DNA from: an uncultured virus (IMG/VR IMGVR_UViG_3300017938_000552)
Lineage: Duplodnaviria > Heunggongvirae > Uroviricota > Caudoviricetes
Strand: one strand, 5' to 3'
Virus record (IMG/VR): IMGVR_UViG_3300017938_000552
DNA: 64,000 bases
The notes beneath the pieces were generated by a model. That model saw nothing but the letters and a program-made list of their open reading frames with translations. It made no database searches and had not been told where the DNA came from. The translations under genes were made by a program, and so were the position numbers. Below are positions 2,710 through 35,489 of this stretch, one piece after another (within the stretch, counting starts at the first letter, position 1; the number at the start of each line of letters is the position of its first letter).

Positions 2710-3588
2710 TTAAAGACTAATTGTAATATTCATTATTTCCTTGAACTTGTTTGCATTAAGCCTGAGTGAAACTTCAGATATGCCACATGAATATGCTAAT
2801 TCTCTCTGGGTCATATTTAATGACATACACACATTTACTATGTACAATATGGCACATGCTATAGAAATTGGTGACTTTCCAACAACTTGTTTTTTCTCAG
2901 CTATGATGTCATACATAGCCTTTGCCATCTGTTCAACATCACCCGGAAGATTGTTTTTTGCAACAATTCTGGACACAAGTAATAGAACACGGTTTTGTGG
3001 GTCTTTTCTAGTAATAAAACCAGATTGTTTCATTGAGCTATAATATTTACCAATTATTGTTTTATCAATATTTGCCCTATCTGCAAATGCTCTAAGATTG
3101 ATAGGTATTCCATGTTGCATATATCCAGCATAAACACAAGCACAAAGTGTTCCATAGATAGTTTTTCCATGTAGGTATTTACCCCTTGCCGCTTTTTTAT
3201 AAATGCCCATAGCTGTGTCTGCTATTGGATTTGGAATTTCTAAAACTTCTTTCATTCTCAGAAGCTGGATATTTGCCTTGAAGATGTTCCGTTCCACACT
3301 GGAATTTATCTTTTTTATTGAATCTATCTTTTTGAGCCTAGACCACTTCTTTGTTTTTCTGAAGCCATCTGAGTAAGTAAAGCCAATTTCTGTTGTTGAA
3401 CCTCTGCCAATTGGATCAAATGGAGAACCAGCCGTTGTACTTTCTTTAGGCTCACCAAAATCTTTCCAATTTGGGTCTTTAGATGGCAGATAACCATATA
3501 CCAGACCACAATTTGGGCAAACAAGTTCACCATCAGCACCTGTGACAAGTGGCACTCTACATTCATCGCATAGAATATCTATTGACAT
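2710..3588 (-). CDS. tfb: archaeal transcription initiation factor TFB homolog
   Basis: N-terminal CxxC..CPNCG Zn ribbon, VERN linker, two cyclin repeats (GKT.., GKSP), C-terminal TQRELA..GISEVSLR HTH; ATG at 3588 follows GGTGA. Confidence 0.93.
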   Translation of the reverse strand: MSIDILCDECRVPLVTGADGELVCPNCGLVYGYLPSKDPNWKDFGEPKESTTAGSPFDPIGRGSTTEIGFTYSDGFRKTKKWSRLKKIDSIKKINSSVERNIFKANIQLLRMKEVLEIPNPIADTAMGIYKKAARGKYLHGKTIYGTLCACVYAGYMQHGIPINLRAFADRANIDKTIIGKYYSSMKQSGFITRKDPQNRVLLLVSRIVAKNNLPGDVEQMAKAMYDIIAEKKQVVGKSPISIACAILYIVNVCMSLNMTQRELAYSCGISEVSLRLNANKFKEIMNITISL

Positions 3589-3589
3589 A

Positions 3590-6500
3590 TTAATCACCAA
3601 ATAGCTCATCTACATTTTCAAAACCCTGTATATTCGCCCAAGAAATACCAGCCGCATTTAAAATGCTCTCAAGCGGTGAACGTAGGGTTCTATCAACAAC
3701 CCACTCATAATCTGGTGTTATACCTAATTTTTTCACTCTATCAGCATCCAAATAAGCCACCCACTGATTATAAGGTAAGTTACCACAACTCTTGGCTTTG
3801 AAATAACGCACCATATCCCCACCGATAATACTTTCTCCTATATATTTGTTGCCCCATATTGCACCATCATAATATTCACCATCCACTTCTATGCCTTTTT
3901 CAAATGGTTTAGAAAGGTTTATGGGAATTGTGATCTGGTCAAGATCATATTCCTTGGTGGCGATGTCTTTCATAATTTTCTGGATGTTTGAAATTATTTT
4001 TGTTGTATCATCCATTAAAATCTGATCAATAACTTCTTTTTGAAGTTTGCGTGTAACCTCTGAAGTGTTACCACGAACATAATCAAAACCTTTGATCAAG
4101 ATGTAATCACAGGGGTCGTTATTCTCCCTAATAATACGCTGACCATAACGCTTTTTAGCACCTTCCTCAGAATTTTTAGCTTTGATGAAAAGTGTTGTTG
4201 AAGCAAACCTATCTTCTTTAATGTGGAATTTTGAATCAACAATTCCCTTTTCCTTTGCCCAAAGTGTTAGCTCATCGTTGACTTCTGCAACTAAACCCTC
4301 TACCTCTTCCATTGTAGAGCCTAAGAAGATGGAATCTGTATTATGTAGCAAAACACCACCACTTGAAAATTGATGATTTTCCGTTTCTAGATCATAAACA
4401 TTTACGTTACTATAAATTCCTAAATCAGTAATTTGTTTTACTTCATGATCTTGATGTAAACGTAAATCTGTTATGTTTTTAACAATTCTAATTTTTCTAA
4501 GGTATTGTTTTGATTTTCTCTGCCCAACATAAACCATATATCTGCTTTTTTGCCCTATAATTTTATATAAGATATGTAAACCAAACATTATTAACTCTGT
4601 TTTACAGAATTCCATTATTTTTTCTTTATTCTTATCGGAACCATCACCATAAATAAAACCGTCTATAAATTCTGAAATTGCGTTTGTATCCGCATTAAAT
4701 ATAAGTTCTGGAATTTTCTTATTGTGGTTTGAATCATAACACATTAGGAAATATTCTAAAGCACCACATTTAATAGGGTTATGAATATTTAACCTATATA
4801 CTATACCACCAGACGTTTCATTTGATGGATATGACGAGATTTTACAGTCAAAATGTAATTTTCTTTCTAATATATCCTTTGAACGAATCAATAAATCTTC
4901 CTGTTGCCCATCAATATGTACAGCCACCTTGTTACATGTTTTTCTATAATCACCTGCTGTTCCATCTGCACAGAAATATCCCAATAACCAAGCAATTTCA
5001 CTATCATAAAAGGTTCCTTTTGGCAAAGAAGAATATTTTATCTCACCAAGAATATCACCCGTTGAAACTTCCCTTGGTTTTGCTGGCGATCCATCACTTC
5101 TGATCAGCGAATGATCCTCTGTAACTTCAACAACACCATCATATGTTTCGACACGGAACATTTTTTTGGTGACTGTCTTTTTTATTAATTTATTTACTTT
5201 TGTCCAACCAGATTCTGTCAGAGTCGTATCATTGGCTTTAACGTCTTGTATAGGAACAACATCTAACCTGTTATTTCTAAGTATTAAGGTTGGTGAGTTT
5301 TCAATAACACTATCACCATAAATCGTATCATGTCCAGCTTTCTTAGCACGATCCTTAACACGGTTGAGTCCTTCACCAGCCGTCTTGAGTACGAAATCAC
5401 CACGTTCCTTGCTGTATATTCGGCTACCCTTGAAAGCGAAATATCCCCAAGCACCAGATAGGAAAGTCTTTACATTTGTTTGGGTAACTTTGGCTGTTTT
5501 ATATTCCTCAGTACCCGGAGTGTATTTCTTAACTTCAGCATCCCAGAAGTCTCGTTCCTTTGATAGATATGTAATGACGGATGGTGCAAGTTTGCCCCAG
5601 ATGTCGGGGGATGTTTCTTTCGGGAATGAAAGTAATATTGACGGATAGTACCTACTCATGTCAAGAACCGTTATCTTTCTGTAAAGACCCATCGATGGGG
5701 TGAAAACAACGCCACCAAATTCCAAATCTTCAGTGTCCTCAGACATATATGATGTTGGGAGTGTAAATCCAAGTTGGTGGGCTGTACTGAGCCACAGTGG
5801 ATCGTGACGTTTTATATGTGATGTTGTATATTCTAAATTGGCTAGACCAACAAAATTCTTCTGCCCCCAAAAGTTTCGGAAAATATCATACTGAATCCAT
5901 TTACCATCCGTGACACGTTTGAAACCATTAGCCAACATTACACAATATTCGACATCTTTTTTGTTATATTTAATGAAGTTATCTCTTTGTGTTTTATCAG
6001 TATACATCTCTATTTTGAATGTATCAGAAACCATATTCACAGCTTTTATTATATCTTCTTTAACAACAACTTCCTTTAATCTGTTCCCCAAGGAAGATTT
6101 TATCTTTTTATATGCTCCTAATAAATCAAAAATCTCACAACGAGATAAATCTAGAGTTTCCTTGAACTTTGCCTTTGCCCATGCTTGGAAATAATCAATG
6201 TCGAATTTGATGTTCCAACCAGAAATAATATCTGGATTTGCATTATCTAAATACTGTTTTGTAAGATCAAAAAGATTCCTAGCATTTATAACACGAACCA
6301 AGTCCCAATCTGGTTCCAGTTGAGTATGTGTTTGTTGGAAAACTCTATCATCCAGACATATACTATAATATTTTTTGTATACAGAATCGTGGAGTGTTAC
6401 AGCAATTACAGGTTGTGTTGGATTTCTCATGTTCGGGAATCTGCCCTGTGATAAAACCTCAATGTCAATAAATACTACACGTGGTTGAATGATCTTGTTC

Positions 6501-6889
6501 ACAGGCACTATTGTTGTGTAAGGAATAACTACTGTGTTAATTGGCGTGTAGAAACAGGATAGGATGCCTGTATCTATCAACAACCTTTGAATGTAATTTA
6601 CATCAGCCTCATGTGGTGCTTTGAACTTTACACGATTATTACCTACAGAAGCTGGATCGGTTGCTATGATCTTTATGTCTGGTTTTCCATCCATATGGAG
6701 AAAACCACCCAGAGTCTCTACAATCCAAGGTTCGGTTGGAATTGCCTCTGTTGATGGAACATAGAGATATGGAACGAAACCTGTTATGAAAACTTTTTTC
6801 TTTACAAGAGATGTGGTGTCCCTTACCCACATATCAATATTCCCAGATTCACCATTATAATGGGCAGTTAAATATTGATACTCAGGCAA
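3590..6889 (-). CDS. polB: family B DNA polymerase with intein
   Basis: Exo I DIE, Exo II GWNIKFD, Exo III YNKKD, motif A LDMSRYYPS, motif C YGD|TDS, KKRYG, IKG. Confidence 0.95.
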   Translation of the reverse strand: MPEYQYLTAHYNGESGNIDMWVRDTTSLVKKKVFITGFVPYLYVPSTEAIPTEPWIVETLGGFLHMDGKPDIKIIATDPASVGNNRVKFKAPHEADVNYIQRLLIDTGILSCFYTPINTVVIPYTTIVPVNKIIQPRVVFIDIEVLSQGRFPNMRNPTQPVIAVTLHDSVYKKYYSICLDDRVFQQTHTQLEPDWDLVRVINARNLFDLTKQYLDNANPDIISGWNIKFDIDYFQAWAKAKFKETLDLSRCEIFDLLGAYKKIKSSLGNRLKEVVVKEDIIKAVNMVSDTFKIEMYTDKTQRDNFIKYNKKDVEYCVMLANGFKRVTDGKWIQYDIFRNFWGQKNFVGLANLEYTTSHIKRHDPLWLSTAHQLGFTLPTSYMSEDTEDLEFGGVVFTPSMGLYRKITVLDMSRYYPSILLSFPKETSPDIWGKLAPSVITYLSKERDFWDAEVKKYTPGTEEYKTAKVTQTNVKTFLSGAWGYFAFKGSRIYSKERGDFVLKTAGEGLNRVKDRAKKAGHDTIYGDSVIENSPTLILRNNRLDVVPIQDVKANDTTLTESGWTKVNKLIKKTVTKKMFRVETYDGVVEVTEDHSLIRSDGSPAKPREVSTGDILGEIKYSSLPKGTFYDSEIAWLLGYFCADGTAGDYRKTCNKVAVHIDGQQEDLLIRSKDILERKLHFDCKISSYPSNETSGGIVYRLNIHNPIKCGALEYFLMCYDSNHNKKIPELIFNADTNAISEFIDGFIYGDGSDKNKEKIMEFCKTELIMFGLHILYKIIGQKSRYMVYVGQRKSKQYLRKIRIVKNITDLRLHQDHEVKQITDLGIYSNVNVYDLETENHQFSSGGVLLHNTDSIFLGSTMEEVEGLVAEVNDELTLWAKEKGIVDSKFHIKEDRFASTTLFIKAKNSEEGAKKRYGQRIIRENNDPCDYILIKGFDYVRGNTSEVTRKLQKEVIDQILMDDTTKIISNIQKIMKDIATKEYDLDQITIPINLSKPFEKGIEVDGEYYDGAIWGNKYIGESIIGGDMVRYFKAKSCGNLPYNQWVAYLDADRVKKLGITPDYEWVVDRTLRSPLESILNAAGISWANIQGFENVDELFGD
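4340..5311 (-). mobile_element. 324-aa intein with LAGLIDADG endonuclease in PolB motif C
   Basis: Starts SVIENS after YGD; block B VTEDH; LAGLIDADG-like WLLGYFCADG and FIDGFIYGDG; VYDLETENHQF; ends LHN before Thr. Confidence 0.93.
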
Positions 6890-6925: not shown

Positions 6926-6942
6926 TATTTAAACCTTTCGGT
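6926..6942 (-). promoter_or_regulatory. class A BRE-TATA promoter ACCGAAAGGTTTAAATA (polB/tfb operon)
   Basis: Same core at 8071, 8245 and 11179. Confidence 0.8.
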
Positions 6943-7117
6943 GTGTATTTTCCTTTTTATCTGTTATAGAAATTCTATGAATCAACAAGGGACATTTTAC
7001 TTCCACTCCAAACGGACACTCCTCAAATATATTTCCATCTGGATTGGGTTGACCACACCACTGATTGAGTGTTGTGGGAGATTCAAACTGAATCAAATAC
7101 TTACATTTTTTTACCGT
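6929..7117 (-). CDS. 62-aa four-Cys protein, possible ACG start
   Basis: Open frame VKKCKY...WCG...ECP...KCP; first canonical start (TTG) lies after the first Cys. Confidence 0.45.
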   Translation of the reverse strand, partial: TVKKCKYLIQFESPTTLNQWCGQPNPDGNIFEECPFGVEVKCPLLIHRISITDKKENTHRKV

Positions 7118-7671
7118 ATATTATCCCATCCTGTTTTACCAACTCTACTTGAAATCAAATCGGCAGAAGAAACTATACTAGCCAAGAGTGTGTCTGGATA
7201 ATAGCCTGTTACACTCCAACCACCCATATGACTGAGTATGGCTAGGCGTATATTCTGAGAAAAGTTGAAACCAAACTCATCCCAATCTAAAATGGGAATT
7301 TCGGCATGATCAACAGGTCCAATAGTGTTATGTGGCTTGGTAAATATCAAACTGTTTGGATTATGTTCATATGCACCATTAACCAGAATATACATATCGG
7401 ACTTGCCAGCATCGTGGAAAATTATAGAAATCATAAGTTCATCCAAATCCATACTTTCAAACACACAGGCATCATAAATGGATTGACCAATAAATATCAT
7501 TTCTTCTGTATGGGCACGAAGTCCACCTTTAAAGAAATGGTGGATATTACGACTTGCTGGTGCATCATCAAAACCACGTTTCTTAATTATTTCAAAATAT
7601 TCAAATGACCACGTTCTAAATTGTCTGTCGTTTATGCTCTCTATACTTTTTTCTATATTTATTTTATCCAT
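7111..7671 (-). CDS. HD-domain phosphohydrolase (YhaM-like HD domain)
   Basis: APAS..HH...GGL..HT, HDAGK, DH, AILSHMG, ADL. Confidence 0.85.
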   Translation of the reverse strand: MDKINIEKSIESINDRQFRTWSFEYFEIIKKRGFDDAPASRNIHHFFKGGLRAHTEEMIFIGQSIYDACVFESMDLDELMISIIFHDAGKSDMYILVNGAYEHNPNSLIFTKPHNTIGPVDHAEIPILDWDEFGFNFSQNIRLAILSHMGGWSVTGYYPDTLLASIVSSADLISSRVGKTGWDNIR

Positions 7672-7683
7672 TTATACCACCTT

Positions 7684-8040
7684 TTACTTTCCAGCTTGAT
7701 ACTCATTCCAAGTAAGTGTTTGAGAACTTATTATTTTGGGTTCACCATCTATATAAACTTCTTGACCAAACAACACCCATTTCACAATATTTAAATTACC
7801 AGTAATTGTGGAATGTGTCTTTAATACTGTTTTCGTTCCATTATCATATTGAGTGATTGTATATTCTATACGTTCTGTTACACTAACCAATGGTGGAATA
7901 TATTGAAGTCTATACAAGACACCAAAGAATATGGCAACTATAAATAAAATAATAAAAATTTTTACAATCTTTCTCCTATTATTTGGTACAACAACGTTGG
8001 TGTTAGTATAATCATCGGTAGTATTTGTATAGTCCGACAT
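7684..8040 (-). CDS. single-pass membrane protein
   Basis: RRK followed by hydrophobic helix; promoter 8071-8086. Confidence 0.6.
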   Translation of the reverse strand: MSDYTNTTDDYTNTNVVVPNNRRKIVKIFIILFIVAIFFGVLYRLQYIPPLVSVTERIEYTITQYDNGTKTVLKTHSTITGNLNIVKWVLFGQEVYIDGEPKIISSQTLTWNEYQAGK

Positions 8041-8070
8041 CGAATATCCCAACACAAATGATTTCTGAGC

Positions 8071-8086
8071 ATTTAAACCTTTCGGT
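8071..8086 (-). promoter_or_regulatory. class A promoter
   Basis: ACCGAAAGGTTTAAAT. Confidence 0.8.
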
Positions 8087-8091
8087 TAAAA

Positions 8092-8221
8092 TGGTGTGGG
8101 TGTAGGATGGTCCTTGGTTACTTCGCACCTTTCACGGATTTCCACCATCAATAGCCCTAGAGAGATTACTTTCATCGACCTTTGGGTGCTGTCGTTCCCT
8201 TCAGGATGTCCCGTTTCCCAC
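8092..8221 (-). ncRNA. candidate ~130-nt rod-like structured RNA ending in ACCA
   Basis: Own promoter 24 nt upstream; nested pairs GUGGG/CCCAC, GGGA/UCCU, UCCU/AGGA, GCACC/GGUGC, UCGAU/AUUGA; 3' ACCA then UUUU; locally GC-rich. Confidence 0.55.
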
Positions 8222-8244
8222 AAATAACAGAATCGGTCTGGAAA

Positions 8245-8261
8245 TATTTAAACCTTTCGGT
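8245..8261 (-). promoter_or_regulatory. class A promoter driving the ncRNA candidate
   Basis: ACCGAAAGGTTTAAATA. Confidence 0.8.
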
Positions 8262-10367
8262 TTTTATTTCTCCCTTTGGAATACATTTTTATAAATAATT
8301 TCTCCCATTTTTTCTAAAATCAAAAAAGTCAACTACAGATTGATATAGCCACCCACCTAGAATAAAAGAAACACCACCACAGATCATAAAACCCATTTTA
8401 TCTCTATCAATAAAGGAAAAATATGTTAAACCCCATAATAATACTGCAAGTGTCAAACAAATTACTACATCCGTTTTATGACTTTTAAAACGTATCTGAA
8501 ACAATTCTTCCCTATCCATTTTTTTGCTTCTCCCTCACCAACCTCTCTTCAGATTCTATACAGCAATCATGGTAAAATGAACAGGAAAGACAGGTTTTGT
8601 TCATCAAATAGATGTGCTTTGGTGTACTTTCATATGGAGAATCTTTCCAGCCGAAACATGCTAGATCACGATCTGTTGTGTAACACATTTTTATTCCCTC
8701 TCGTTTCTTGACCCAATACCAATACCAACATTAATGCCCCACAAAAAGTAGCATGTTGTATAAAGTATGAGCCAATATACACTACCCATACCAAATTCTA
8801 CGCCGATAGCAAATAGTATGCCACCAACGATGAGTAATATTACTTGAATAATTACTAATGTTTTTGTTTTCATTTTACACTATCATCCCCAAGCCTCATT
8901 AAACGTCATACCATTTTTCATTTTTTCTGCGGTGTCAAGGAAGTTCAATATTCCGCAATAATAATTTTCAGAATCCATAAAATTAGCAAGAAGTTGTTCA
9001 TATTTTTCCTGCAACTTATGTATTTTCTCAATACTCATAATTTTTATAAAACTATCTAACTGCTTTTCCAACGGACTTTTCCTCTTAAATATATTTCTTA
9101 TCATTTCACTTCATCCTTTACCTGTGATGAGTCGAGTGTGCCATCAATCAGATGAATATATTGTTTCATCTGTTCTTCTGAGAACTTTGCTGTTCTTTTC
9201 TCTAAGCTCTTTGCACATCTTATATATACTTCTGCACTATCCTTCATCATAATGTAGTCATAATATGCTATTTTAACAGGGTTTTTTTCTATAGTAATCA
9301 TTTTTTCACATCCAATTTAACCAATACTAACAATAAACTAATTGAAGTTAAAAATGAAACACCAAAAAATACCTGACCCAAAACATCATATCCAAACAAA
9401 CGCCATGATATTAGCACACCAACTAGACCTGAGAGATAAATAATACAAGAAAAGAAAAAAAACCAATTATTTTTCATTTTTTTATCACCTATCATAACGT
9501 GTTACAGCCATTAATAAACCTTCCGTTTATCATCAACCTCAACAATTTTCAACAAGTAGATGAGGTAGCTACCTACTCGCCTCTTGTTATATCTTTTCCT
9601 AGCCGAACTTTCATCCTCAAAGTATTCTGGTTCCCAATCACCAGAACTGGAATTGACTTCAGCAACTATCCATCTTTCAGTCATTATCTTAACCATCCAC
9701 TTTATGTAATACTGATGTGCTTATAGATGGTTGTGTCTTTTCCCACTCTTCTTGTATTTTCAAAGTTCTGCCTATGTTCCAAGGGCATTTATCACATATA
9801 TGTTCTAACTCGTCAACCTTGGCTTGGAAATTCATCACTTCACCCCTTGCCCTATCACGTTCCTCTTCGAGTTTTAGAATGGTTTCGTGATCGTTCATTG
9901 AGATTCCTGCTTTGTCTTTTCCTCTGCTGTTTGAATTACTGTTTTTAGACCAATATAGATACCGAAACCTATACCACTAAAACCTATGGCTAAATCACCA
10001 ATGAATTGGTTTCCAAGCATGACAAAACCAACAAAAGAGAGCATACCAATGGTTGCACAGATCGCTTCTATTAAAACAGCAACTTCAAATCTCATTTTTA
10101 GTTCATCCTAGTGTGGTAACAATTTTATTTAAATTAGCACCATCTTCCTTAGCTAACCTTTTCATAAAGTTGATTATAGCTTCTGGTTTATTCCCAACTA
10201 GCTCAAAGGAATAGGTGGGTGGACAGCAAAATGTTCTCACCACGATTAACTTATCCGTATCTAGGTCAATACAAGCCATATCCATTAGTCTTTGGGGAAT
10301 TGTATATTTATTATAAAAATCAATTCCTACTACCTTTTTTTCGGACAAATTACAGTCATTCTCATTA

Positions 10368-10637
10368 CTACGATGTACCATATAAAGGTTTCGGTTTAGC
10401 AAATAATTTCTTGTTTTCCGCTTCTAATCGTCTAAAGAAAGCCTGTCTCTCCTTTGTCATATAACCATTGCCTTCACACCAGAGACAAAGACTATAATCT
10501 GTCTCAAATGTTCCATCTCTCCCAAAGTGGAAATATCCTTCACCTTTACAGTGTGGGCAGACTATAGCACCTTCTGGTATCTTTATGGTTTCACGATAAA
10601 TTTCGCCCTGTCTTACAGGATGAACATAATCAGACAT
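10368..10637 (-). CDS. DnaJ-type CxxCxGxG zinc finger protein
   Basis: CPHCKGEG and CLWCEGNG. Confidence 0.7.
   Translation of the reverse strand: MSDYVHPVRQGEIYRETIKIPEGAIVCPHCKGEGYFHFGRDGTFETDYSLCLWCEGNGYMTKERQAFFRRLEAENKKLFAKPKPLYGTS
10380..10395 (-). promoter_or_regulatory. class A promoter inside the 3' end of the upstream gene
   Basis: ACCGAAACCTTTATAT; implies the next gene starts at TTG 10348. Confidence 0.6.
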
Positions 10638-11178
10638 TTTTCTATCTCCTACATTGGCTTGGTTCCTTTTAACTCTTCCTGCATCTTGTCTCTTATCTTC
10701 TTTGGGAATTCTTTGAGCAACATTGTGGCAACATCATCGTCTTGAATTGATTGAATGATCTCGTTCCATTCTGCCAATGTAAGTGTGATAGTTACCGAAA
10801 GGTCCATTATTGTTGTTTTTTTACTCATCCTTTATCCACCCTTTCTATATTTTTTAAATGATATTCCACAGATTCCGTGATAATATCACTCCAAGCCCAC
10901 ATCTGAAGGGATTCCTCTATTTCATTCCGTAATTCTTCATCTGTTAGATTATATTTCTTCTTAGTCTCATCCCATATATGCTTATATGTGAAGAGTTCAT
11001 AAGTTTTATAAACAGCAGGTTCAATCATTTCATCACCAAGCGGTGCTTTCAAACTTTTAACTGTTTCTGATGGATGATACACATTAGATTTTGGATATTT
11101 ATCTTTCCAAGATTCAGTCATTCTTTACACACCCATGATTCTGGGTATCTCTATCTATTCTCAGTTAGAATTCTAAGC

Positions 11179-11194
11179 ATTTAAACCTTTCGGT
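11179..11194 (-). promoter_or_regulatory. class A promoter
   Basis: ACCGAAAGGTTTAAAT with extended identity to 8063-8088. Confidence 0.8.
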
Positions 11195-13191
11195 TATTAT
11201 CTGTGAATACCTATACAAAGACCACCATTAGTGGCATTATCAATCTTACAAACACCATATTCCTCAAGTTTTTTTATAATTTCTTGAATATCACATATTC
11301 TACTCAATTAAATTCACCTGAAACATGGCGGGTTACGTGTATCATCGAACAACTTTTCCCTACGTTCAACCTCCACTAAAAATATTTTCATTCTTATCCT
11401 CATAATTCTTATTTCCTCATTAATATCAACAAAAGAATAATTTCTCATATCTTCTCTAATTTCCATAGCTAATTCATCTGGGTCTTTACATCCCGTTTCA
11501 AATGATCCAAGTTTATTCATTTAATCACTCTCCAATTATTACATCTCTGTTTTTTCAATTCTTCTTCCCATCCTTTTTTGTCTGTATCAACTAAATATAA
11601 TGCTCTAATCCAAATATTTTCAGGTTCATCCACAGAAAAACGACAGGTATATTCATGTGGAGAATCATCATAAGATAAAAATCCAAATCGCTTATAGAAG
11701 CAATTAAAACAGGACTTTTCACTCATTTTTTATCCACCGATCTTTCTAATTTTTTCTCAGCTTGCCGAATCATAGTCGTAACATGACAGTTAATTCTGCC
11801 ACATGTTGGGCAAACTGGCTTACCATCCTTTCCTATCATTTTTTAATAACTCCATAGAGGCAAAACACACCATTGTTGTCCAAATCAAACTCTAGACAAT
11901 GTTCACAAATTTCACAGTTTCCCATGTTCTGCCAACCCGTTTTTTTGTCTCTGGTTGGTATGCCCTCAATTATTGGTGGCTCTTTGGGTGGTGTAGTAAT
12001 TATACCATTAAGATATTGGTTCCACTCTTTTACTATTGGTTCATTTTGCTCCGAAATTAATTGCCGTTGTTCATCTGTCATTTTAGAATAGTCATATATC
12101 TTATAGGTTTTGGGACACCAAACTGCTGAACTACGCACTCTGAATTTTGCTTTTCTTAAAAGTTCTACATCCATATTAATCACTTCTTGGCTGAAAGTGG
12201 CTGTTCCAAATTTTTATATGCCTTCTCGATGGCTGGTATCAATAGTTTGCCGTTGTTTCGTTTTTCAACCAAGTTTGAGAATTGCCTGTTACCTCTTTCT
12301 TCTCTGAGAATATGTGCAATCTTCCATGCGTCATTAGATAGTAAAACTAAATGGGTATAGCTTCCCCCAACTCTTCCCGTATTATCTTTTTTGATGAAGG
12401 CAAAGGGGCATCTGACAAAACTGATAAACTTGTCATCGTGCCATCCCTTAGCTATATCAAGGTCTGTATCATTCATTCGAGATGGTTGAACACAACCCAT
12501 CTGGTTCACCATACAATCCTCAAAGTACAAAAGTAAGTTCCTTTCATCCTTGGTCATATCTTCAACTTTCATTTTTCATTCACCCTATTTTCTACCTCTT
12601 TAATATGGGATAAAAGTGGTTCATTCTTCTCCGATTCCATTCGCCAAGTCTCACCATCAAATAATTCTATCTTTCCCTTACTTGTACGCCATATCAGAGA
12701 ATCATCAGGATTAATTCGAGCCTTCCATAAAAGGTGCTGAATGAAAGCTAACAACTTCTCAGGGTTCTCAATCCATTCCTTTACTGTATCTTCAACAGTG
12801 ACTCTTTGGATACTCATTTTTTCACCATCTCTGAAAACTTTGTCGTATATGATTCTGTATTAGCGGCATACTGTTCAGACCTATATGAACAACTCTCAAT
12901 TGGACATTTTAATTCTGATCTAGTCCACTCATCTGTGGAAATTAATTTTTCCAAATGAATCGGACATATTCTCCTGCCTGATTTAAGTTCATAATATGAG
13001 TATCCTGTTAGTGGGTGTGTATATCCACTGAAATAAAAGGATTTTCTTTCTACGTATAGCCCAAACTTTTGAAATGTATGTCTAGCTGATTCGGTACGTA
13101 TCTCGAAGTTATTTATATCACCCCTTAGAGACTTCATACCACGTTGAAAACTCTTGTTCCAACGATATTCTCCATATGTGAATTTCATTAT

Positions 13192-13467
13192 TTATCCAAC
13201 CCTATCTATCAACCGATTATAGGCATCTATAATTGAACCTTTAGCATCAAGTTCCTTGAATGTTGATCTGCAATGGATGTTCTTACACTCAAATACAAAT
13301 ATGTAGTTATTATCGGTTTTTATCTTTGTGCTAAAGAGTTGATCCTTTTTGCACATTGGACATATATACGGTCCTTTAAACATGTTATGAACATTATTTC
13401 TTCGATGTTCTGTAAGAGAGGCTTTATATTCCTCAATTTCATCTATTGATTTTTGCATTACTGTCAA
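13192..13467 (-). CDS. Elf1-like zinc ribbon protein
   Basis: PYICPMC...FECKNIHC...IIDAYNRLID resembles Elf1 FxCPxC...CxxC...VDxYxxxxD. Confidence 0.55.
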   Translation of the reverse strand: MTVMQKSIDEIEEYKASLTEHRRNNVHNMFKGPYICPMCKKDQLFSTKIKTDNNYIFVFECKNIHCRSTFKELDAKGSIIDAYNRLIDRVG

Positions 13468-13487
13468 TAACAGAGTTGGTTGATGAG

Positions 13488-13504
13488 TTTATAAAGATTT
13501 CGGT
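13488..13504 (-). promoter_or_regulatory. class A promoter
   Basis: ACCGAAATCTTTATAAA. Confidence 0.75.
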
Positions 13505-13517
13505 TAAAAGACCGAAT

Positions 13518-14141
13518 TTAAACGGATATTTTGTTAATAACTTCCTGTCCTTTCACAGCAAGGTCAAACGGGTTTGTGGTGCATGGCAGACTTCTATACT
13601 CAAATCCGTGTTTCTTAGGTTCCCACTCACCAAGCATCCTCTTGTTGGAAACCACATAATCTTTGAATGTGTTGTCCAATTCAAAAACCATATGTCGAAT
13701 TTCATCCTTTGTGAAGTCTCTAAACTTTTCTTTTTCTGTATCCCATATGGAAAAGTGAACGTGCATACCAGCAGTTGCCCTTCCGGGTAGAAGTCCTGTG
13801 TTGTGGGTGTGTTCGGTCTTTCCATAGATGTTTTGTGTACTATCACCAAATGAGGCATGATGATACTTTTCGGCTATATATTTCTGCCATTCGTCTGTGA
13901 CTTTCATTTCTGGACTTAGAAGTATTTTTAATCCTAACACACGTGCCTTTTCTCTTTCGTTGCTTTCGGCTAGTCCAAGTGTATCAACAACTCTCTCTGG
14001 GTTACTTCCCCAAGCAGAACGGACTTCAACAAGGAAGCCCATCTCATCAGCAGGGAAGTTGTACATAGGTGCTTCTACGATTCTGTTATCAGAGTCGAGA
14101 AGCCACATCTCTCTCTCCAAACCAATCTCTTTGATTAGCAT
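13518..14141 (-). CDS. COOH-NH2 ligase (glutamate-cysteine ligase/amidoligase fold, phiEco32-like)
   Basis: IGLERE, VEVR, AGMHVHFS, GFEYRSLP; ATG 14141 sits about 22 nt below a TATA box at 14163. Confidence 0.7.
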   Translation of the reverse strand: MLIKEIGLEREMWLLDSDNRIVEAPMYNFPADEMGFLVEVRSAWGSNPERVVDTLGLAESNEREKARVLGLKILLSPEMKVTDEWQKYIAEKYHHASFGDSTQNIYGKTEHTHNTGLLPGRATAGMHVHFSIWDTEKEKFRDFTKDEIRHMVFELDNTFKDYVVSNKRMLGEWEPKKHGFEYRSLPCTTNPFDLAVKGQEVINKISV

Positions 14142-14215
14142 ACATACTACCTTTATCGAGAATATATAAACGTTTGTGTACTGTTTGCACAAAAAATACA
14201 TTAAAACATTAAGTT

Positions 14216-14584
14216 TTACCTGAAATAAGTACCGTAATATATAATCAGGGCATTGTTAGCAACAACTATCATGTTTATTTCAATAGCTAATATAATGAAA
14301 ACCTTACAAAATTTCCGATATGCCAGTGATGCATTATGCCTTTCAAGATAGTTTTGCCCAAATATAAGCACACCAGCCACACCACTCATTATCAGAAATG
14401 ATACTAATATCACAAGTGGATAGCCCCCTAAATTCAAAAGATATGCGGTTACAGGATTTGCCTCATATCCATAACCATGACTTATAGAAACAGTGGTTGT
14501 GATCAAATCTAAGAATTTCGTAAAGAAGAGAAGAGATACAATTATGAAAGGTTGTATTTTTAGACTCTTAATTTCAGAACCCAT
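14216..14584 (-). CDS. DUF5658-like membrane protein
   Basis: LDxxTT...GYxxEANP, C-terminal NN, three hydrophobic helices. Confidence 0.7.
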   Translation of the reverse strand: MGSEIKSLKIQPFIIVSLLFFTKFLDLITTTVSISHGYGYEANPVTAYLLNLGGYPLVILVSFLIMSGVAGVLIFGQNYLERHNASLAYRKFCKVFIILAIEINMIVVANNALIIYYGTYFR

Positions 14585-14607
14585 ATTTGATATTTGGTTG
14601 TGATCTG

Positions 14608-14624
14608 TTTATAAACATTTCGGT
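14608..14624 (-). promoter_or_regulatory. class A promoter (leaderless transcript likely)
   Basis: ACCGAAATGTTTATAAA, 24 nt above ATG. Confidence 0.75.
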
Positions 14625-14629
14625 TCAGT

Positions 14630-14983
14630 TTAGGAAAAAATGCTCTGATATATAATAATACAATTATTCAGGACAACAATCATATTAAATATGAAAAAAC
14701 CATAAGTAACTATCCTAATTGTAAATATCGTTGGTATACCCTCTCTATTGAACCATTTTTGCATGAAAAGGATCATGATACCAACACAGGACATAACCAA
14801 TAAAGATACAATCGCTAGTGATAGAAAACCACCTATACCTAGAAAGTACGCTGTGATGGGGTTTGCTTCAGAGGCATAACCACTTTTTATTCCAAAATAA
14901 GTTGTTCCTAAGTCCAAAATCTTTGAACCTAAGAGAAGTGTGAAGACTGTGACGGGTTGGAGTTTTCCTTGTGTCTTGGACAT
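14630..14983 (-). CDS. DUF5658-like membrane protein, tandem paralog
   Basis: LDLGTT...EANPITAY...NMIVVLNN. Confidence 0.7.
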   Translation of the reverse strand: MSKTQGKLQPVTVFTLLLGSKILDLGTTYFGIKSGYASEANPITAYFLGIGGFLSLAIVSLLVMSCVGIMILFMQKWFNREGIPTIFTIRIVTYGFFIFNMIVVLNNCIIIYQSIFS

Positions 14984-15019
14984 AATAATTTATATGTGAT
15001 AACTTACTTATAAGGTTTT

Positions 15020-15169
15020 CTATTTTATAGGTGATGTCATACCATCGGATTTTCCAGCCAAAGACATCATTTCATTATAACACTTTAGACAAAGTTCTCT
15101 TTGATTTTTTGGATCATATCCCAGAAAATCGGTCTTACAACCACATTTATCACACGTTGTTTTTCCTAT
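15020..15169 (-). CDS. 49-aa CxxC..CxxC zinc ribbon with ATA start
   Basis: GGAGGTGA RBS then ATA GGA AAA; GKTTCDKCG...LCLKCY; in-frame TGA three codons upstream. Confidence 0.6.
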   Translation of the reverse strand: MGKTTCDKCGCKTDFLGYDPKNQRELCLKCYNEMMSLAGKSDGMTSPIK

Positions 15170-15641
15170 CTCTAATCACCTCCATCCAGAGATTTTCCAT
15201 TTTTATCCAAGCACTTACATTTTCAAGGGTTATTTTTCTCTCTTTATCCAAGTAGTAGATTTCCTTTATCCCACTTTGAATGATAAAACGTCTGCACATA
15301 AAACATGGGCTATCTCCTTTGGCATCGCCAGCAGGGGAAAGATACATGGTTGCACCCCATCTACGTATTGGATCGGCTTGAATTATGGCGTTCTGTTCAG
15401 CGTGAACGGCTGGACAGAAGTTGTAGGATGTTGAATGTTCTTCGTTCTCTAAGTCCTTGAGACAGGGCATTTCTTCCGTTCCATAGTTGTGAGTTCCATG
15501 TGCAGAACCGTTATATCCCGAACTGATAATCATGTCATCTTTTACGATGATTGCACCGAACTTTCGTCTTGAACAGGAAGAACGTTCAGCAACAACACCT
15601 GCTATATCCAGATAATACTGGGTTTTTGTTGGTCTAGACAA
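15150..15641 (-). CDS. dCMP deaminase family protein
   Basis: RSSC, SGYNG, HAEQNA, SPCFMC. Confidence 0.92.
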   Translation of the reverse strand: MSRPTKTQYYLDIAGVVAERSSCSRRKFGAIIVKDDMIISSGYNGSAHGTHNYGTEEMPCLKDLENEEHSTSYNFCPAVHAEQNAIIQADPIRRWGATMYLSPAGDAKGDSPCFMCRRFIIQSGIKEIYYLDKERKITLENVSAWIKMENLWMEVIRDRKNNV

Positions 15642-15667
15642 TTCTATATTTTAACCACATGAACTAC

Positions 15668-15683
15668 ATATAAATGTTTCGGT
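15668..15683 (-). promoter_or_regulatory. class A promoter
   Basis: ACCGAAACATTTATAT. Confidence 0.75.
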
Positions 15684-16388
15684 AAATATATCCCAGTTTC
15701 CTTTAATATATAATTTTTTTGGTTATTTTTTCAGCTTTTTTTCCAATTCCTCTATCTTTGTGTTGAGTATAGCAATATCAGCATAGTGCTTTAACTTAAC
15801 TTCTGGTGCTTTTGCCCCACCAAACTCTTGTTTCCACAAAGTAACTTCATTCTCAAGAACCTTGTATGGGCATTTGTTCGGAGTACACCGTATCTTAATA
15901 CAGAAATCACGGTTCGGGCAACTAAGCTGGATTTTCTCTTCCTCACTCAATTTATATGTCATTTTTTCACCATTCCATCGGCTGTGGATTTAATACAAGA
16001 ATAACGTTTCATATTTTCATTAAATGAACTTGTCTTTTTCTCTTTATCAGACCATTCACTTAACCTAGCCATACCATCTTTAAAATAACTAAATTTCATA
16101 GCACATCTTAGACACCTTGCATCTCCATATCTCTCTATATCAGACTGAACCCATTTGTGAGGTAGTAAATCTTTTTCAGTAAGAGGAACCACAAGTTGAA
16201 GTTTATCAAGTAATTTTTGAAGTCTTACACGTTCTGCATCATATTGATTTTCAGATGAGAAGTCCCTTTTCTTATATGCCTCATCAGCAAGTTTTTTTAG
16301 TTTTGAAATCCTTTCTTCCAAATTCTTTATACTATGTGTTGGATTATTATTCATCATATTGCACAATAACCTATGTTATTGATCATTA

Positions 16389-16404
16389 ATATAAGTCTTT
16401 CGGT
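16389..16404 (-). promoter_or_regulatory. class A promoter
   Basis: ACCGAAAGACTTATAT. Confidence 0.7.
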
Positions 16405-17084
16405 TTGAAACCACCAAAATCATTAGTTATCTATTATAAAATAAATAGATTTTTTACTATCTACTCGTCTACGCTTCCACGCTTCCACTCTTCAAATATT
16501 ATGATGTGATCTCATTTTTTCGCCTTTTCTTTTTAAGAAAGCAAAATATTTTAACAGAATTCTAACATCTTTTTCTGTCCCATTTCTAACTGCCATATTC
16601 TGAACGATTCTAAAGCTATCCGTGCAACCTCTACTTTTATACCAGTTTAGAATCACAATCGAACCAGCAAGTGGATTTGGTTCCCTTTCTTCTCCTATAA
16701 AATCGCCAAACGGAACATAAATCACCCCTGCACAATCATCATTATCATACCAATATGTTCCATATGGTGAATAATTATCTTCATGCTGGTTACAGAACCT
16801 ACGGAGTTTATTTATCAAAAAGCAATTCCAGTTATCGTCCCTGAAAGTGCCATCTAGATTGAAAGCACAGTATGGTGGGCTTCCATTCCAATTCTGTTTA
16901 CCGTGTCTGCAAAGTATTCCTGTCAATATTTTTCCTTCCTTTGCACCAACATTCCCAGCACATTTCCTTAGTACCTTCCCTACCTACAGTTCTAGACCAT
17001 TCTAAATATGCTGAAATACTCAGTGGGTTACTACCAATGATGATTATCTCAGATTCGTGACCACATTTATACTTTGTCAAACTT

Positions 17085-17134
17085 TTTCAATATGAGTAAA
17101 GACCTGTGTAGTATTTAAATCTTTCGTATCTAAA
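17085..17134. repeat. 50-bp promoter-containing direct repeat, copy 1
   Basis: 45/50 identical to 17361-17410 by manual alignment. Confidence 0.85.
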
Positions 17135-28402: not shown

Positions 28403-29593
28403 TTAATATTCCTGTATCTGCCCATTAGCTAACTTTTCACAGTAATCTCCAAGTCCCAGCATTTCATGGTTCACCAGATTGATTATTTCATCTTCTACTA
28501 CTGTTTTGTGAACCATCAACCCATCGTGTTTTATGTATATGATTGTCGGTTCGTTTATTGGTGTTCCAATCCTGCTAACCATCCAGACATAGACGGTACT
28601 TATCTGATTTTCCTTGAAATTCTGGTATATCTTATCCGCAAGATAGAAACAGAAGTGATTATAGATTTTTCCGATGTGTGAGATTGAATTCTTACCACTT
28701 GCCGCCTCAACGCTCATGGGTCTGGACATTGAGATCAAACCAACAGGATTGTTACCTCTACCAACTTGACCAGAATCACCAGATTCGGCTGATGTTCCTG
28801 TGACGGTGAGATACAAACCATTTATTCCATTATCATATCTATCCAATGTATTGAGCCTAATTGTTGGAGTATAATCTGGATAATTCTCTCTACAGAATCT
28901 AGCTATTAATCTTGTAATCTCTTCTTTGTCCTTCCTATAAGCATACATATCTGTGATATATCTATCAATCATAGCCATTGCCACCGTGATGTCTAATTGT
29001 TTGCCGTTTCTGATAGTCATTACCTTGATGTCCTTGCCTGAGCATGGATATTGTTTCTTGAATTCTGGTGTGTTAAGATATTTCTCAAGCCCTATTGTGA
29101 GATTTTCTGTCGGTGTGAATGGTGCATACCCTACAGCCGCAGATGTGTCGTTGGCTGGTAGAAATTCACCATTTTTAGTTCGTTCAAAAATATCATTGAG
29201 ATCACCAGAGCCTTCAGCTAGGTATGAAACATATTTCGGCATAGGGAACATATCTAAATTTGTCTTAAACCAGTTCTTGATTGTTTGCTCTATAACTGGG
29301 TGGATGTCCACTTTCTTCCCATCAATAATAGATGTTGCTCTATCACCCAAACATATCGTGGCTGGTTTTATGATCTTCCCACCACCAAAGGCTGGTTGTG
29401 TTTCACCAGCAAAGAGTGTTGCCTTATCAAAGTTGTGGTGCTGTTTCCAGTTCTTGAAGTATTCTACAGAGATTGCATCAACGATACTATTTATGATTGT
29501 ATCTGGATGCCCAAAACCCTTACGTTCAACGATTTCAACGCTGTCATTTTCAACGTTTGTCACACGTACTGGCTCAATATTTATGTTGACCAT
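28403..29593 (-). CDS. mat: archaeal-type S-adenosylmethionine synthetase
   Basis: VEIVERKGFGHPDT, ANDTS, DIKVM, TGTSAESGDSGQVGRGN, GKIYN. Confidence 0.95.
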   Translation of the reverse strand: MVNINIEPVRVTNVENDSVEIVERKGFGHPDTIINSIVDAISVEYFKNWKQHHNFDKATLFAGETQPAFGGGKIIKPATICLGDRATSIIDGKKVDIHPVIEQTIKNWFKTNLDMFPMPKYVSYLAEGSGDLNDIFERTKNGEFLPANDTSAAVGYAPFTPTENLTIGLEKYLNTPEFKKQYPCSGKDIKVMTIRNGKQLDITVAMAMIDRYITDMYAYRKDKEEITRLIARFCRENYPDYTPTIRLNTLDRYDNGINGLYLTVTGTSAESGDSGQVGRGNNPVGLISMSRPMSVEAASGKNSISHIGKIYNHFCFYLADKIYQNFKENQISTVYVWMVSRIGTPINEPTIIYIKHDGLMVHKTVVEDEIINLVNHEMLGLGDYCEKLANGQIQEY

Positions 29594-29648
29594 ATCGTAT
29601 ATGTATATAGATAATAAATATAAATGTTTGTATGTCTATGAGGAATAA

Positions 29649-29987
29649 TTATATTAGTGTGTCTACATATCTCTGTATCATCTTTGTATACACCAACATC
29701 CTTCTATCATGTCTGGTCTTACCTGTCTTGTAATGTTGAAGATAGTGGGCAAATTCATGGGAAACATCACCAGCAATTATTTGCCTATACTTGACATATT
29801 GTATCGTGTTAGGATACACGAATTTACAGAACCTCCTATTTTGTATTTTTATGTTTGGTATAGGGACATGAAATCTCCAACACATAAAATAAGTTAATCC
29901 GATTGCCTCTATTTGAGTTATGGGCTGATCATACTTTGTGTTAGAAAGTTTATCTCTTTCAGTCCTGTAGTATACAAGACGAGTCAA
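29649..29987 (-). CDS. small zincin-like (HExxH) protein
   Basis: HEFAH followed by a downstream His. Confidence 0.6.
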   Translation of the reverse strand: MTRLVYYRTERDKLSNTKYDQPITQIEAIGLTYFMCWRFHVPIPNIKIQNRRFCKFVYPNTIQYVKYRQIIAGDVSHEFAHYLQHYKTGKTRHDRRMLVYTKMIQRYVDTLI

Positions 29988-30204
29988 AGTTTGTCACTCT
30001 TGTAGGAACACCTGATACAAACATTATCGAATGTATATCCATCAAAGAACCTACAAAGGTTACAGGTCTTTCCTATTAGAACCTGCGTACCTAATTTCGG
30101 GCACTCAACCAATGGTATCCGAATAACTTCCAGAGATTCAAATTTTGGCTTTGGCATGTGTACCATACACATAGATACATATCTCTTATATAAATCTTCC
30201 GAAC

Positions 30205-31164
30205 CTAAGAATCTTGTATAATGGCTTTTATATATCCAATTCCGAAATAAAAGCCAAGAATGATAGCAACTCTTAGTACTGTATAATTGTGATGGTTCTT
30301 TAAATCTACACTCATAATTGTAAAAATTAAGCCCCAGCTTCCAAAGAAAGCACCAATACAATCAATCAGTGGTCTTGTTCCAATAAAATACGGTATGAAG
30401 AAAAACACAGGACTTAGAAGAATTAATAATGATGGCAGAGAACGGGATGGAAGATAGAAATGTTTTACCCTCAACATCCTACCCCAACTCCAACCATAGC
30501 CAAAAATTTGCTTTTGGAATTGTTTTATTGTCTTTCTTTCGTGATGTATTACTGGTGAGTTTGGGACACCTAATAATCTATATCCTCTCTTACGTAGTCT
30601 ATAATTCATCTCATAGTCTTCTGCACCACCAATATCCTCATTAAATCCATCAACATCTGCTATTGCTTTTGTTCTATATACACTGTTATATCCGGGTAGG
30701 CTATTGACATATGTGAAATCATCATATTTTTGCGAGTGATTAGAAGCAAGTTTCATTACAGAATTTATTGCTTGTGAAAGTTCTGAGGAAGCGTCTGGTA
30801 CACAACCAGAAGATATTCCTGCAATTGGCATTTCACCAAAATTGTTTAGATCAGAAAACATCTCTTCCATATCATCTGCCCAAGTGTGTGGAACTTCCGT
30901 ATCGCTGTCTAGGAAGGCAACAAGATCGGATGTAACGTGCATGAGTCCTTGATTACAGGCAACTGCACGTTTACTTCCCTTTCCAAGAGACTTGGGTTCA
31001 TCATAGATTTCACAGCCATATTTTTTGGCAATTTCCAGAGTTTTATCAGTTGAACAACCATCAACAATTATGATCCTGACAGGAATGGTTTGTTGTCTCA
31101 GTGATTTGAGACAGACTTCAAGTGTTCCTTCAGAATTTTTTGTGGGTATAATTACATCAATCAT
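30205..31164 (-). CDS. GT2 glycosyltransferase with C-terminal TM helices
   Basis: VIIPTKN, VDGCSTD, FLDSD, AEDYE. Confidence 0.92.
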   Translation of the reverse strand: MIDVIIPTKNSEGTLEVCLKSLRQQTIPVRIIIVDGCSTDKTLEIAKKYGCEIYDEPKSLGKGSKRAVACNQGLMHVTSDLVAFLDSDTEVPHTWADDMEEMFSDLNNFGEMPIAGISSGCVPDASSELSQAINSVMKLASNHSQKYDDFTYVNSLPGYNSVYRTKAIADVDGFNEDIGGAEDYEMNYRLRKRGYRLLGVPNSPVIHHERKTIKQFQKQIFGYGWSWGRMLRVKHFYLPSRSLPSLLILLSPVFFFIPYFIGTRPLIDCIGAFFGSWGLIFTIMSVDLKNHHNYTVLRVAIILGFYFGIGYIKAIIQDS

Positions 31165-31314
31165 TTTAATCAGTCACATCTGGTGTTATCATAAAAGCCG
31201 CACAACCAAAGCCAAAAGAAATTTGTACTATAATAACCGAATTAACTAATATACCAGCCATAACACCAATTGCTGAAATAATAGTTGTTTTAATTATCCA
31301 TTGATACCATTTCA

Positions 31315-31662
31315 TCACAAATACACCAACAACTTTGGTATGAATATTATACATCCCACGAAGAATGTAAATATTGTGAATAGTAAAACAGCACCAGAAC
31401 TAATATCCTTAATAATTTTTATTTGTGGATTGGGATTTGGATCAATCATGTTGCATATTGCTTCTACGCAAGTATTCATCATTTCTAGTGCCATTAACAT
31501 AGATGAACATATAAGAACAGCTATCCATTCCATTGGAGATGCACCAAACATAAAACACATAATAAATGTAATGGTTGTAAACGTAAGCAATAATAGTAGT
31601 TTGCTATTCACCAATGCTAACAATATTCCGTTTAATCCGTATTTGAACATACAATACTCCAC
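31315..31662 (-). CDS. dgkA: DgkA-family diacylglycerol/polyprenol kinase
   Basis: EMMNTCVE, KDISSGAVL, three TM helices. Confidence 0.85.
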   Translation of the reverse strand: MEYCMFKYGLNGILLALVNSKLLLLLTFTTITFIMCFMFGASPMEWIAVLICSSMLMALEMMNTCVEAICNMIDPNPNPQIKIIKDISSGAVLLFTIFTFFVGCIIFIPKLLVYL

Positions 31663-32045: not shown

Positions 32046-32050
32046 ATAAG

Positions 32051-34148: not shown

Positions 34149-34178
34149 TGATTTACACCAATATTACGTTGTGGTTGA

Positions 34179-34194
34179 TTTATAAATGTTATGG
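34179..34194 (-). promoter_or_regulatory. class B promoter
   Basis: CCATAACATTTATAAA above ATG 34148. Confidence 0.7.
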
Positions 34195-34196
34195 AC

Positions 34197-34213
34197 ACCG
34201 AAACACTTATAAA
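34197..34213 (+). promoter_or_regulatory. class A promoter, back-to-back with class B
   Basis: ACCGAAACACTTATAAA. Confidence 0.7.
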
Positions 34214-34274
34214 CTCTCCTAAAAACAGTTCTGTGGGAATCCCCGTCTAAACGGAATCCTAAAGGTAAAACAAA

Positions 34275-35375: not shown

Positions 35376-35384
35376 TTATTTTAC

Positions 35385-35438: not shown

Positions 35439-35489
35439 GGTTGGTTCCAATCAACTAGCATTTTTATGTAGTATATATAAATAGAAGTG

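Follow-up and report, generated by a model that had tools for sequence, protein, structure and literature searches.

A candidate small non-coding RNA gene between two archaeal-type promoters in an uncultured virus

The VA RNAs of adenovirus and the EBERs of Epstein-Barr virus are small structured viral RNAs that are transcribed by RNA polymerase III, end in a U tract and act by protein binding. The non-coding RNAs of viruses that infect Archaea remain almost unexplored; our literature search, from which a preprint on the SSV1 transcriptome was left out, found no study of a stand-alone small RNA encoded by an archaeal virus. For Archaea, the passages of PMC7289017 drawn on here describe a transcription factor B recognition element (BRE) that lies directly upstream of the TATA box and fixes the direction of transcription, a T(A/G) initiator rule for the transcription start, and intrinsic termination for which short poly-U stretches suffice and a hairpin is not needed. 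Here we describe a candidate unit of 130 nt at 8221..8092 on the minus strand of a 64-kb stretch of DNA (the window) from the uncultured virus IMG/VR IMGVR_UViG_3300017938_000552. That this unit gives rise to a functional RNA of some kind appears rather probable, and we tentatively read it as a stand-alone small non-coding RNA gene.

The unit is flanked on both sides by perfect copies of the 17-mer AACCGAAAGGTTTAAAT, a motif with eight matches at up to three mismatches in the window against 0.36 expected, a number that none of 100 shuffles reached. Perfect copies occur at 8262-8246, 8087-8071 and 11195-11179 and a one-mismatch copy at 6943-6927, and the relaxed form (C)CGAAA-NN-TTTAWA is found at nine minus-strand sites between 6.9 and 17.1 kb. 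Besides the unit, this class precedes eight gene starts. Because of the archaeal gene context (TFIIB, RFC, AdoMet synthetase, STT3/AglB), we assign the motif to the archaeal type, with a purine/A-rich BRE directly upstream of a TATA box, and not to bacterial or phage promoters. The earlier note, which had been made from the letters of this DNA and a list of its open reading frames (ORFs), had spoken of a class A promoter; a real, non-random promoter motif is indeed present, but it is an archaeal BRE/TATA element and not one of a phage class. A scan for bacterial-type promoters and terminators gave nothing relevant and no hairpin terminator. BRE-like CCNNAAGG copies within the RNA were also considered and set aside, as the window shows no enrichment of them (15 found, 17.4 expected).

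Read along the minus strand, the stop codon of a small membrane-protein gene (8519..8289) is followed by a 26-nt spacer, the upstream promoter P1 (8262-8245), a further spacer of 23 nt and then the unit itself, which opens with GUGGG (8221-8217) and closes with CCCAC (8100-8096) and ACCA (8095-8092). TTTT follows directly at 8091-8088, and the second identical AACCGAAAGGTTTAAAT begins at 8087. The paired ends, the ACCA, the T tract and the promoter immediately behind it had all been pointed out in the earlier note and are present at these positions; what it had called a U tract is a possible archaeal poly-U stop of only four T. The unpaired ACCA, an end of the NCCA type, is encoded at the putative 3' end of the RNA. 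At the other end of the unit, the BRE adjoins the TATA box upstream, about 25 nt before the predicted purine start. The distance from the BRE G to the start codon is 37-50 nt behind promoters of this class, apart from one case of 70 nt, and the ATG behind the promoter at 14621 has an offset of 37, which corresponds to a leaderless mRNA. Since this is also the offset of G8221, which is preceded by T and fits the T(A/G) initiator rule, the transcription start is predicted at G8221. The promoter geometry points to the very base near which the earlier note had placed the start.

The base composition of the unit sets it apart from its surroundings. At 50.8%, its G+C content stands above the 34.6% (sd 5.3) of the window as a whole and forms the joint highest peak of the 64 kb; a fraction of 7.8e-5 of the 130-nt windows gets as high, and position 8092 is exactly where the maximum lies. 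Seven other G+C peaks coincide with long ORFs (the peak at 1934-2106, for instance, falls in ORF 1711-2121); of the peaks found, that of the unit alone falls outside one. For calibration, G+C content was determined for four tRNA genes of related loci, where it amounts to 46-58%, compared with 37-40% for the loci themselves; structured RNA genes of this virus group are therefore G+C-enriched by a similar margin.

The predicted RNA has a well-defined fold. Its minimum free energy (MFE) structure of -37.2 kcal/mol, which is identical to the centroid, is a nested rod that carries small purine-rich internal loops of 1-4 nt and splits at the tip into two small arms; free loops do not exceed 7 nt and nearly all bases are paired. 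The long nested rod that the earlier note had folded by hand is thus recovered as MFE and centroid structure, but its tip is a three-way junction and not a single hairpin. The terminal helix comprises 5 bp, or 6 bp with U8222, and leads into a 4x3 internal loop, and pair probabilities in the stems are between 0.80 and 0.999. The MFE frequency of 0.173 compares with 2.5 ± 3.1% in shuffled sequences and was reached by 3 of 500, while the ensemble diversity (mean pair distance) of 8.5 compares with 26.6 ± 9.1 and is matched by about 1% of shuffles. Compared with 1,597 natural 130-nt windows taken from this strand, the unit ranks in the top 0.75% by MFE, 0.56% by MFE frequency and 1.3% by diversity. 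The complete rod is also the MFE structure in four of five longer contexts (8225-8088, 8223-8088, 8221-7990 and 8262-8040); in the fifth, 8221-8040, the basal pairing shifts and the core from the third stem upward is retained. Closure of the first 5 nt onto the last twelve is seen in 7 of 500 shuffles and 33 of the 1,597 natural windows. This closure carries weight, since the fold played no part in predicting the 5' end; the prediction came from the promoter, and it names the very base with which the closing helix begins. The comparison with shuffled controls that the earlier note had suggested gives a divided answer, with an unusual definition of the fold (the 3 of 500 given above) and a stability within chance (z = -1.13).

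The unit also lacks a coding signature. A 45-codon TTG frame (8223..8086), which had been named as the alternative to an RNA, does overlap it, but codon scores and the lack of a protein homolog disfavour this frame as a gene. Its log-odds score of -0.067 per codon compares with 0.375 ± 0.155 for in-frame gene pieces, of which 0.03% score as low, and with -0.53 ± 0.25 for off-frame gene pieces, and its G+C content at third codon positions is 0.50 versus 0.27. The synonymous-codon score of -0.210 is also the median score of shuffled open frames matched in composition (-0.210 ± 0.093), so that its codon choice is exactly random for this composition, and it lies below the scores of all 13 neighbouring small ORFs (0.033-0.283) and of all 4,000 gene pieces. 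For the peptide, no match at E <= 0.001 was found among 1.84 billion protein representatives, no word-sharing candidate in 5.8 billion clusters and no tblastn match in the related loci, and the protein collection does not contain the frame as a called gene. The features of the locus are compiled in Table 1.

Table 1. Position and basis of the features at the candidate RNA locus and of the encoded TFB homolog
Feature	Coordinates	Strand	Basis or remark
Upstream promoter P1: BRE (ACCGAAAGG) and TATA box (TTTAAATA)	8245..8262	-	Perfect 17-mer copy; one of a class of nine sites
Predicted transcription start (G after T)	8221	-	Inferred from offset 37 after the BRE G
Candidate non-coding RNA, 130 nt: closed rod with three-way junction at the tip	8092..8221	-	Fold, G+C, codon choice
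T4 tract, possible archaeal poly-U stop signal	8088..8091	-	Seen in the sequence
Downstream promoter P2: second perfect BRE/TATA copy	8070..8087	-	ATG at 8040 has offset 43
Downstream gene, 118 aa, one hydrophobic segment, no family	7684..8040	-	Codon scores normal
45-codon TTG frame over the RNA unit	8086..8223	-	ORF list; non-coding codon scores
Imperfect internal direct repeat (RNA positions 11-40 versus 79-108)	8114..8211	-	Period 68
TFB/TFIIB homolog with N-terminal zinc ribbon	2710..3609	-	PF00382 TFIIB, 9.8e-22

Starting from the computed promoter class, base composition, lack of a coding signal and fold, we propose the following hypothetical sequence of events for the start, the stop, the accumulation and the function of the RNA, in which (i) TBP and TFB, possibly the element's own TFB, would bind the consensus BRE/TATA box at 8262-8245, a member of what we read as the strongest promoter class in an early-looking block of small genes; (ii) an archaeal RNA polymerase would start at G8221; (iii) some transcripts would end at the T4 tract at 8091-8088 to give an RNA of about 130-134 nt, partial read-through being likely as four T is short; (iv) the first bases would pair with the last bases before ACCA, a closure from base one that would shield the 5' end; (v) the body would fold into a single well-defined rod, interrupted by small purine-rich internal loops and ending in two arms; and (vi) the RNA would act by binding a protein, as a decoy or scaffold, and neither as an antisense RNA nor as a tRNA mimic. 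Protein binding is the likelier mode of action compared with antisense pairing, because nearly all bases are paired, no free loop is longer than 7 nt and no long complementarity between the RNA and the window was found.

Several observations weigh against this proposal. A discrete transcript from the unit is a prediction, the T4 tract is a short, weak stop signal, and the other promoters of the class are for the most part not preceded by T tracts. The stability of the fold is ordinary, with 23 of 200 shuffles as good and 9% of 500 in a second run. The unit is a single sequence, and the three metagenome contigs that carry it (L025-L027) are 100% identical and show no variation. In 58 further, non-identical loci around related polB genes (20-69% identity; 456,463 bases including the window), blastn found no homolog, and a covariance model built from the single sequence and its MFE structure retrieved only the unit itself at 173 bits, its one further match lying in L030 with E = 3.3. 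A paralog within the window was likewise not found. The RNA is so far an orphan, with no homologs to align for covariation. A BLAST search of 1,203 archaeal genomes (401 + 401 + 401, from three phyla, Thermoproteota not among them) gave only short matches at chance level in unrelated genes, strands and frames, the set of the third phylum giving 0 matches at E <= 5e-4. Of the relatives whose sequence extends upstream of polB, the closest (L043, 69% polB identity) retains the promoter motif before polB and a homolog of ORF 8688..8512 and has different genes between that homolog and polB; the unit is therefore not conserved in place, and the region is a variable (hypervariable) accessory block. 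The unit belongs to no Rfam family: Rfam 15, with its models of 5S, SRP, RNase P, tmRNA, 6S, Y RNA, riboswitches and guide RNAs, gave 0 matches at the gathering score over the whole window, and the best matches over the unit were rli60 with 21.8 bits (cut-off 60) and RF_site1 with 15.1 bits (cut-off 40). The same search bears on the earlier note's proposal of an undescribed RNA, against which the assignment of a known family would have counted, and no such assignment resulted. Finally, the unit shows no tRNA features, and a peptide reading is kept alive by a frame without stop codons between the predicted start and the T tract, since TTG starts do occur in this virus.

The region 7000-10000 had no blastn match in a phage database, and in the viral_contigs collection a polB search found no relative, a 20-mer from the middle of the RNA had 0 matches, and the 17-mer promoter had 24 single matches, one per contig, which we judge to be due to chance. 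In L043, the stretch 700-2190 holds a reverse-strand ORF of 198 aa with a zinc ribbon and an ORF of 242 aa in which a DPPY methyltransferase motif was recognised by eye. A scan of the 58 related loci for G+C islands yielded one gene-free island, at 8830-8960 (minus strand) of the distant relative L069, with 43% versus 30% G+C (z 3.3). Situated between a TATA-like box and the ATG of a minus-strand gene, the island contains a CACC-GAAA-GGGUG hairpin and is not alignable with the unit; it may be a structured 5' leader.

That the unit has no function of its own, being a spacer or decayed foreign DNA of higher G+C content between two copies of a duplicated promoter, is a doubtful but serious alternative. 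The unit is missing from its nearest relative, gene content upstream of polB varies among relatives, its composition differs from that of the remaining genome, and the stability of its MFE structure is ordinary. In addition, a 39-nt match of 85% identity (E 8.8e-5 per genome) lies in a protein gene of one genome of the phylum Thermoplasmatota. However, the definition of the fold and the closure of its ends are each found at about the 1-2% level, the genome matches fall in unrelated genes, strands and frames in about the number that chance predicts for 1,203 genomes, and the unit is 100% identical in its three contigs, although these represent one population. We also considered a host-derived fragment or an attP site and rejected both, as the matches in two of the sets (401 + 401 genomes) fell in mutually unrelated genes. 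The 39-nt match, which has a protein-level echo across a frameshift (L176), was judged to be a chance match, since its E value multiplies over 401 genomes.

Alternatively, the rod could be a structured 5' leader, which we regard as unlikely. P1 would then be the upstream one of two tandem promoters of the gene at 8040..7684, transcription would read through the T4 tract, the rod would act as a 5'-terminal stabiliser or regulator, and P2 would make a nearly leaderless form of the same mRNA. The weak T4 signal and the rarity of T tracts before other promoters of the class would fit such an arrangement, and the rod begins at +1 and is kept complete on extension to 7990, as a 5' protective structure would be. 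In contrast, a full consensus promoter inside the would-be leader, right after a T tract, suggests two separate units. The leaders of other genes of the class measure 0-13 nt, except for that of the gene at 11191 (about 33 nt), and the 3' half of the closing helix stands just ahead of the T tract, as would be expected of an RNA with its 3' end at this point.

A small protein gene, either the leaderless 45-aa TTG frame or an internal 29-aa ATG frame (from 8175), is very improbable in view of the codon scores given above, to which the 29-aa frame adds a log-odds of -0.097. The 45-codon frame spans the whole unit and is open from the predicted start through to the T tract, for which the chance is about 0.1 by our estimate for one given frame of 45 codons at this composition. 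TTG starts near the transcription start are used by the virus for the dCMP deaminase (offset 39) and for polB (offset 50), and the polB N-terminus behind the TTG is conserved in L043. The TTG of the 45-codon frame, at offset 35, is nevertheless located 2 nt ahead of the likeliest start.

The least probable explanation is a tRNA-like acceptor-stem mimic that would be charged, CCA-repaired or cleaved like a tRNA, for instance to mislead a defence that targets tRNAs: the unit has paired ends followed by A-CCA, and relatives of the virus carry tRNA genes, but its helix leads into the 4x3 loop and not into a stacked 12-bp acceptor/T minihelix, it lacks D and T arms and an acceptor stem of 7 bp, neither ARAGORN nor Rfam identifies a tRNA or tmRNA in the unit, and a CCA ahead of a T run, spotted here after the fact, has an estimated chance of about 5%. 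With standard settings, ARAGORN found no tRNA or tmRNA; with introns and a lowered threshold it gave two overlapping low-score calls with introns of 343 and 54 nt, which we read as spurious. An Rfam search of 7900-8400 at E up to 10 returned only noise far below threshold, with no tRNA, tmRNA or Y-RNA-like match. Of the 'tRNA-like' end that the earlier note had described, the short helix and the ACCA hold, and nothing else is tRNA-like; its acceptor-stem mimic and decoy for tRNA-targeting defence found no support. Viruses with about 50% polB identity carry tRNA genes for Thr, Met and Ile (L030, 11578-13808) or for Met (L033, 13036-13125), whereas no tRNA gene was found in the 64-kb window.

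The encoded TFB, RFC, AglB and archaeal AdoMet synthetase mark the element in which the stand-alone RNA gene would reside as archaeal, either a virus or an extrachromosomal element. The TFB homolog is encoded directly downstream of polB, as a polB neighbour it recurs in L030, L033 and L036 (27-31% identity), and it may read the virus-specific BRE ACCGAAAGG. The archaeal-type AdoMet synthetase (28403-29593; PF01941, 1.7e-124) looks most similar to enzymes of Thermoproteota, clamp-loader subunits of the RFC type are also encoded, and an STT3/AglB-like oligosaccharyltransferase is located at 40117-41688. The family-B polymerase is distant, with 25-28% identity to haloarchaeal tailed viruses and Methanomicrobiales genomes.

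The genes around the unit and elsewhere in the window deserve a brief description. Nine BRE/TATA promoters of the one class drive a block of small genes at 6927-17129 (minus strand), several of which are leaderless or nearly so, and polB and the dCMP deaminase gene appear to start with TTG. The promoter core AAACC-GAAA-GGTTT is a palindrome that would form a hairpin with a GAAA loop if transcribed. Between the unit and polB, the 186-aa protein at 7111-7671 (minus strand) shows the H..HD..D signatures of the HD phosphohydrolase superfamily; it matches Pfam HD with E 0.0088, below the cut-off, and phrog_5889, of unknown function, with 7e-13. In polB (3590-6889, minus strand), an insertion of about 324 aa that is missing from relatives of about 770 aa interrupts the YGD|TD motif. 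Its intein-splicing and LAGLIDADG matches are sub-threshold (E 3e-4 and 0.0045), the relatives P0002 and P0005 carry those Pfam domains, and the insertion is probably an intein. A 284-aa protein with four NUMOD3 motifs (E 2.2e-20) at 60356-61210 (minus strand) is probably a DNA-binding protein of the homing-endonuclease type. Within 28403-48000, the AdoMet synthetase is accompanied by a long glycosylation cluster of GT2 enzymes, epimerases/dehydratases, a UDP-GlcNAc 2-epimerase, a radical SAM protein and the STT3/AglB-like protein, an unusual cargo for a virus. In the strand scan of folds, the best-defined structure was that of 50671-50800 (minus strand; MFE -37.5, MFE frequency 0.283, diversity 4.0), which sits at the junction of ORFs 50774-51406 and 49836-50777. 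Within the unit itself, the internal direct repeat is identical at 23 of 31 positions (74%), and its score of 18, against 13.1 ± 1.85, was reached by 2 of 200 shuffles.

Among known RNAs, tRNA, tmRNA and tRNA-like RNAs, the last of which include the bacterial YrlA-type Y RNAs and the T4 stable RNAs C and D, share with the unit the paired ends followed by an unpaired ACCA, and differ from it in having a cloverleaf, a T arm and a 7-bp acceptor stem. With archaeal box H/ACA and C/D guide RNAs the unit has in common G+C- and purine-rich internal loops, GA dinucleotides and ACA at 8102-8100 and 8096-8094. It differs from box H/ACA RNAs in that it has no pocket with a K-turn or K-loop 5-6 bp above it, the internal loops being of 1-4 nt (assessed by hand on the MFE structure), in that its ACA lies about 22 nt from the sole candidate upper stem and not 14-16 nt, and in that no GA directly adjoins this 5-bp upper stem. 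Its C-like and D-like boxes are imperfect and not 12 nt apart, unlike those of box C/D RNAs. No Rfam guide-RNA match with E up to 10 overlaps the unit, and a check by hand for H/ACA, C/D, K-turn, SRP S-domain and sarcin-ricin motifs gave no convincing match. The middle of the RNA resembles what we take to be the pattern of archaeal CRISPR repeats; a CRISPR-repeat mimic is unsupported, with no array-like match in the 1,203 archaeal genomes and with the two copies of the internal repeat only 74% identical. TIGR arrays consist, in the part of PMC12045711 used here, of 5-15 units of 12-nt repeats and 9-nt spacers, a repeat/spacer pattern that is not present in the unit.

The adenovirus VA RNAs and the EBERs offer an analogy only. 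Like them, the unit would be a stand-alone viral RNA in the size range of 130-170 nt, with paired ends that form a terminal stem, a U-tract stop and a eukaryote-like polymerase, and action by protein binding is shared in our proposal only. Homology is absent at the level of both sequence and structure, the host domain and the polymerase are not the same, and for the unit a protein partner is so far a postulate. By extension of this analogy, it is conceivable, though improbable, that the unit encodes an abundant early decoy RNA that would sequester a host RNA-binding factor, an archaeal counterpart of VA RNA and the first in an archaeal virus. In that equally improbable scenario, the virus's strongest class of promoters would drive early synthesis of the RNA, which would offer its acceptor-like end as bait on a nuclease-resistant rod; its targets might be a defence nuclease, an enzyme that recognises tRNA ends, or a factor of translation or RNA decay. 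If the unit makes a stable RNA, large archaeal viruses would use small structured RNAs in early infection, the logic of promoter and poly-U stop would parallel that of the viral RNAs made by eukaryotic RNA polymerase III, and a short, defined bait for finding the host partner would be at hand. Its present value is that of a well-specified candidate and of a pointer to an archaeal host for a virus group of roughly 200 kb.

In summary, the undescribed viral RNA that the earlier note had suggested is the reading that best agrees with the promoter, the G+C island, the absence of a coding signature and the defined fold, whereas the functions of acceptor mimic and decoy that it had attached to this RNA are unsupported. 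The closest counterparts are the intergenic small RNAs of archaeal chromosomes. The unit differs from them in that it is viral or extrachromosomal, has no homolog in the searched collections, ends in T4 only and is predicted from its sequence. It shares their anatomy, in which a BRE/TATA box stands some 25 nt upstream of a purine start and a short body that is non-coding and of higher G+C content than the genome ends in a T tract, as far as these rules are set out in the passages drawn on from PMC7289017. The unit is an orphan with the anatomy of ordinary archaeal intergenic small RNA genes, and not a new kind of gene.

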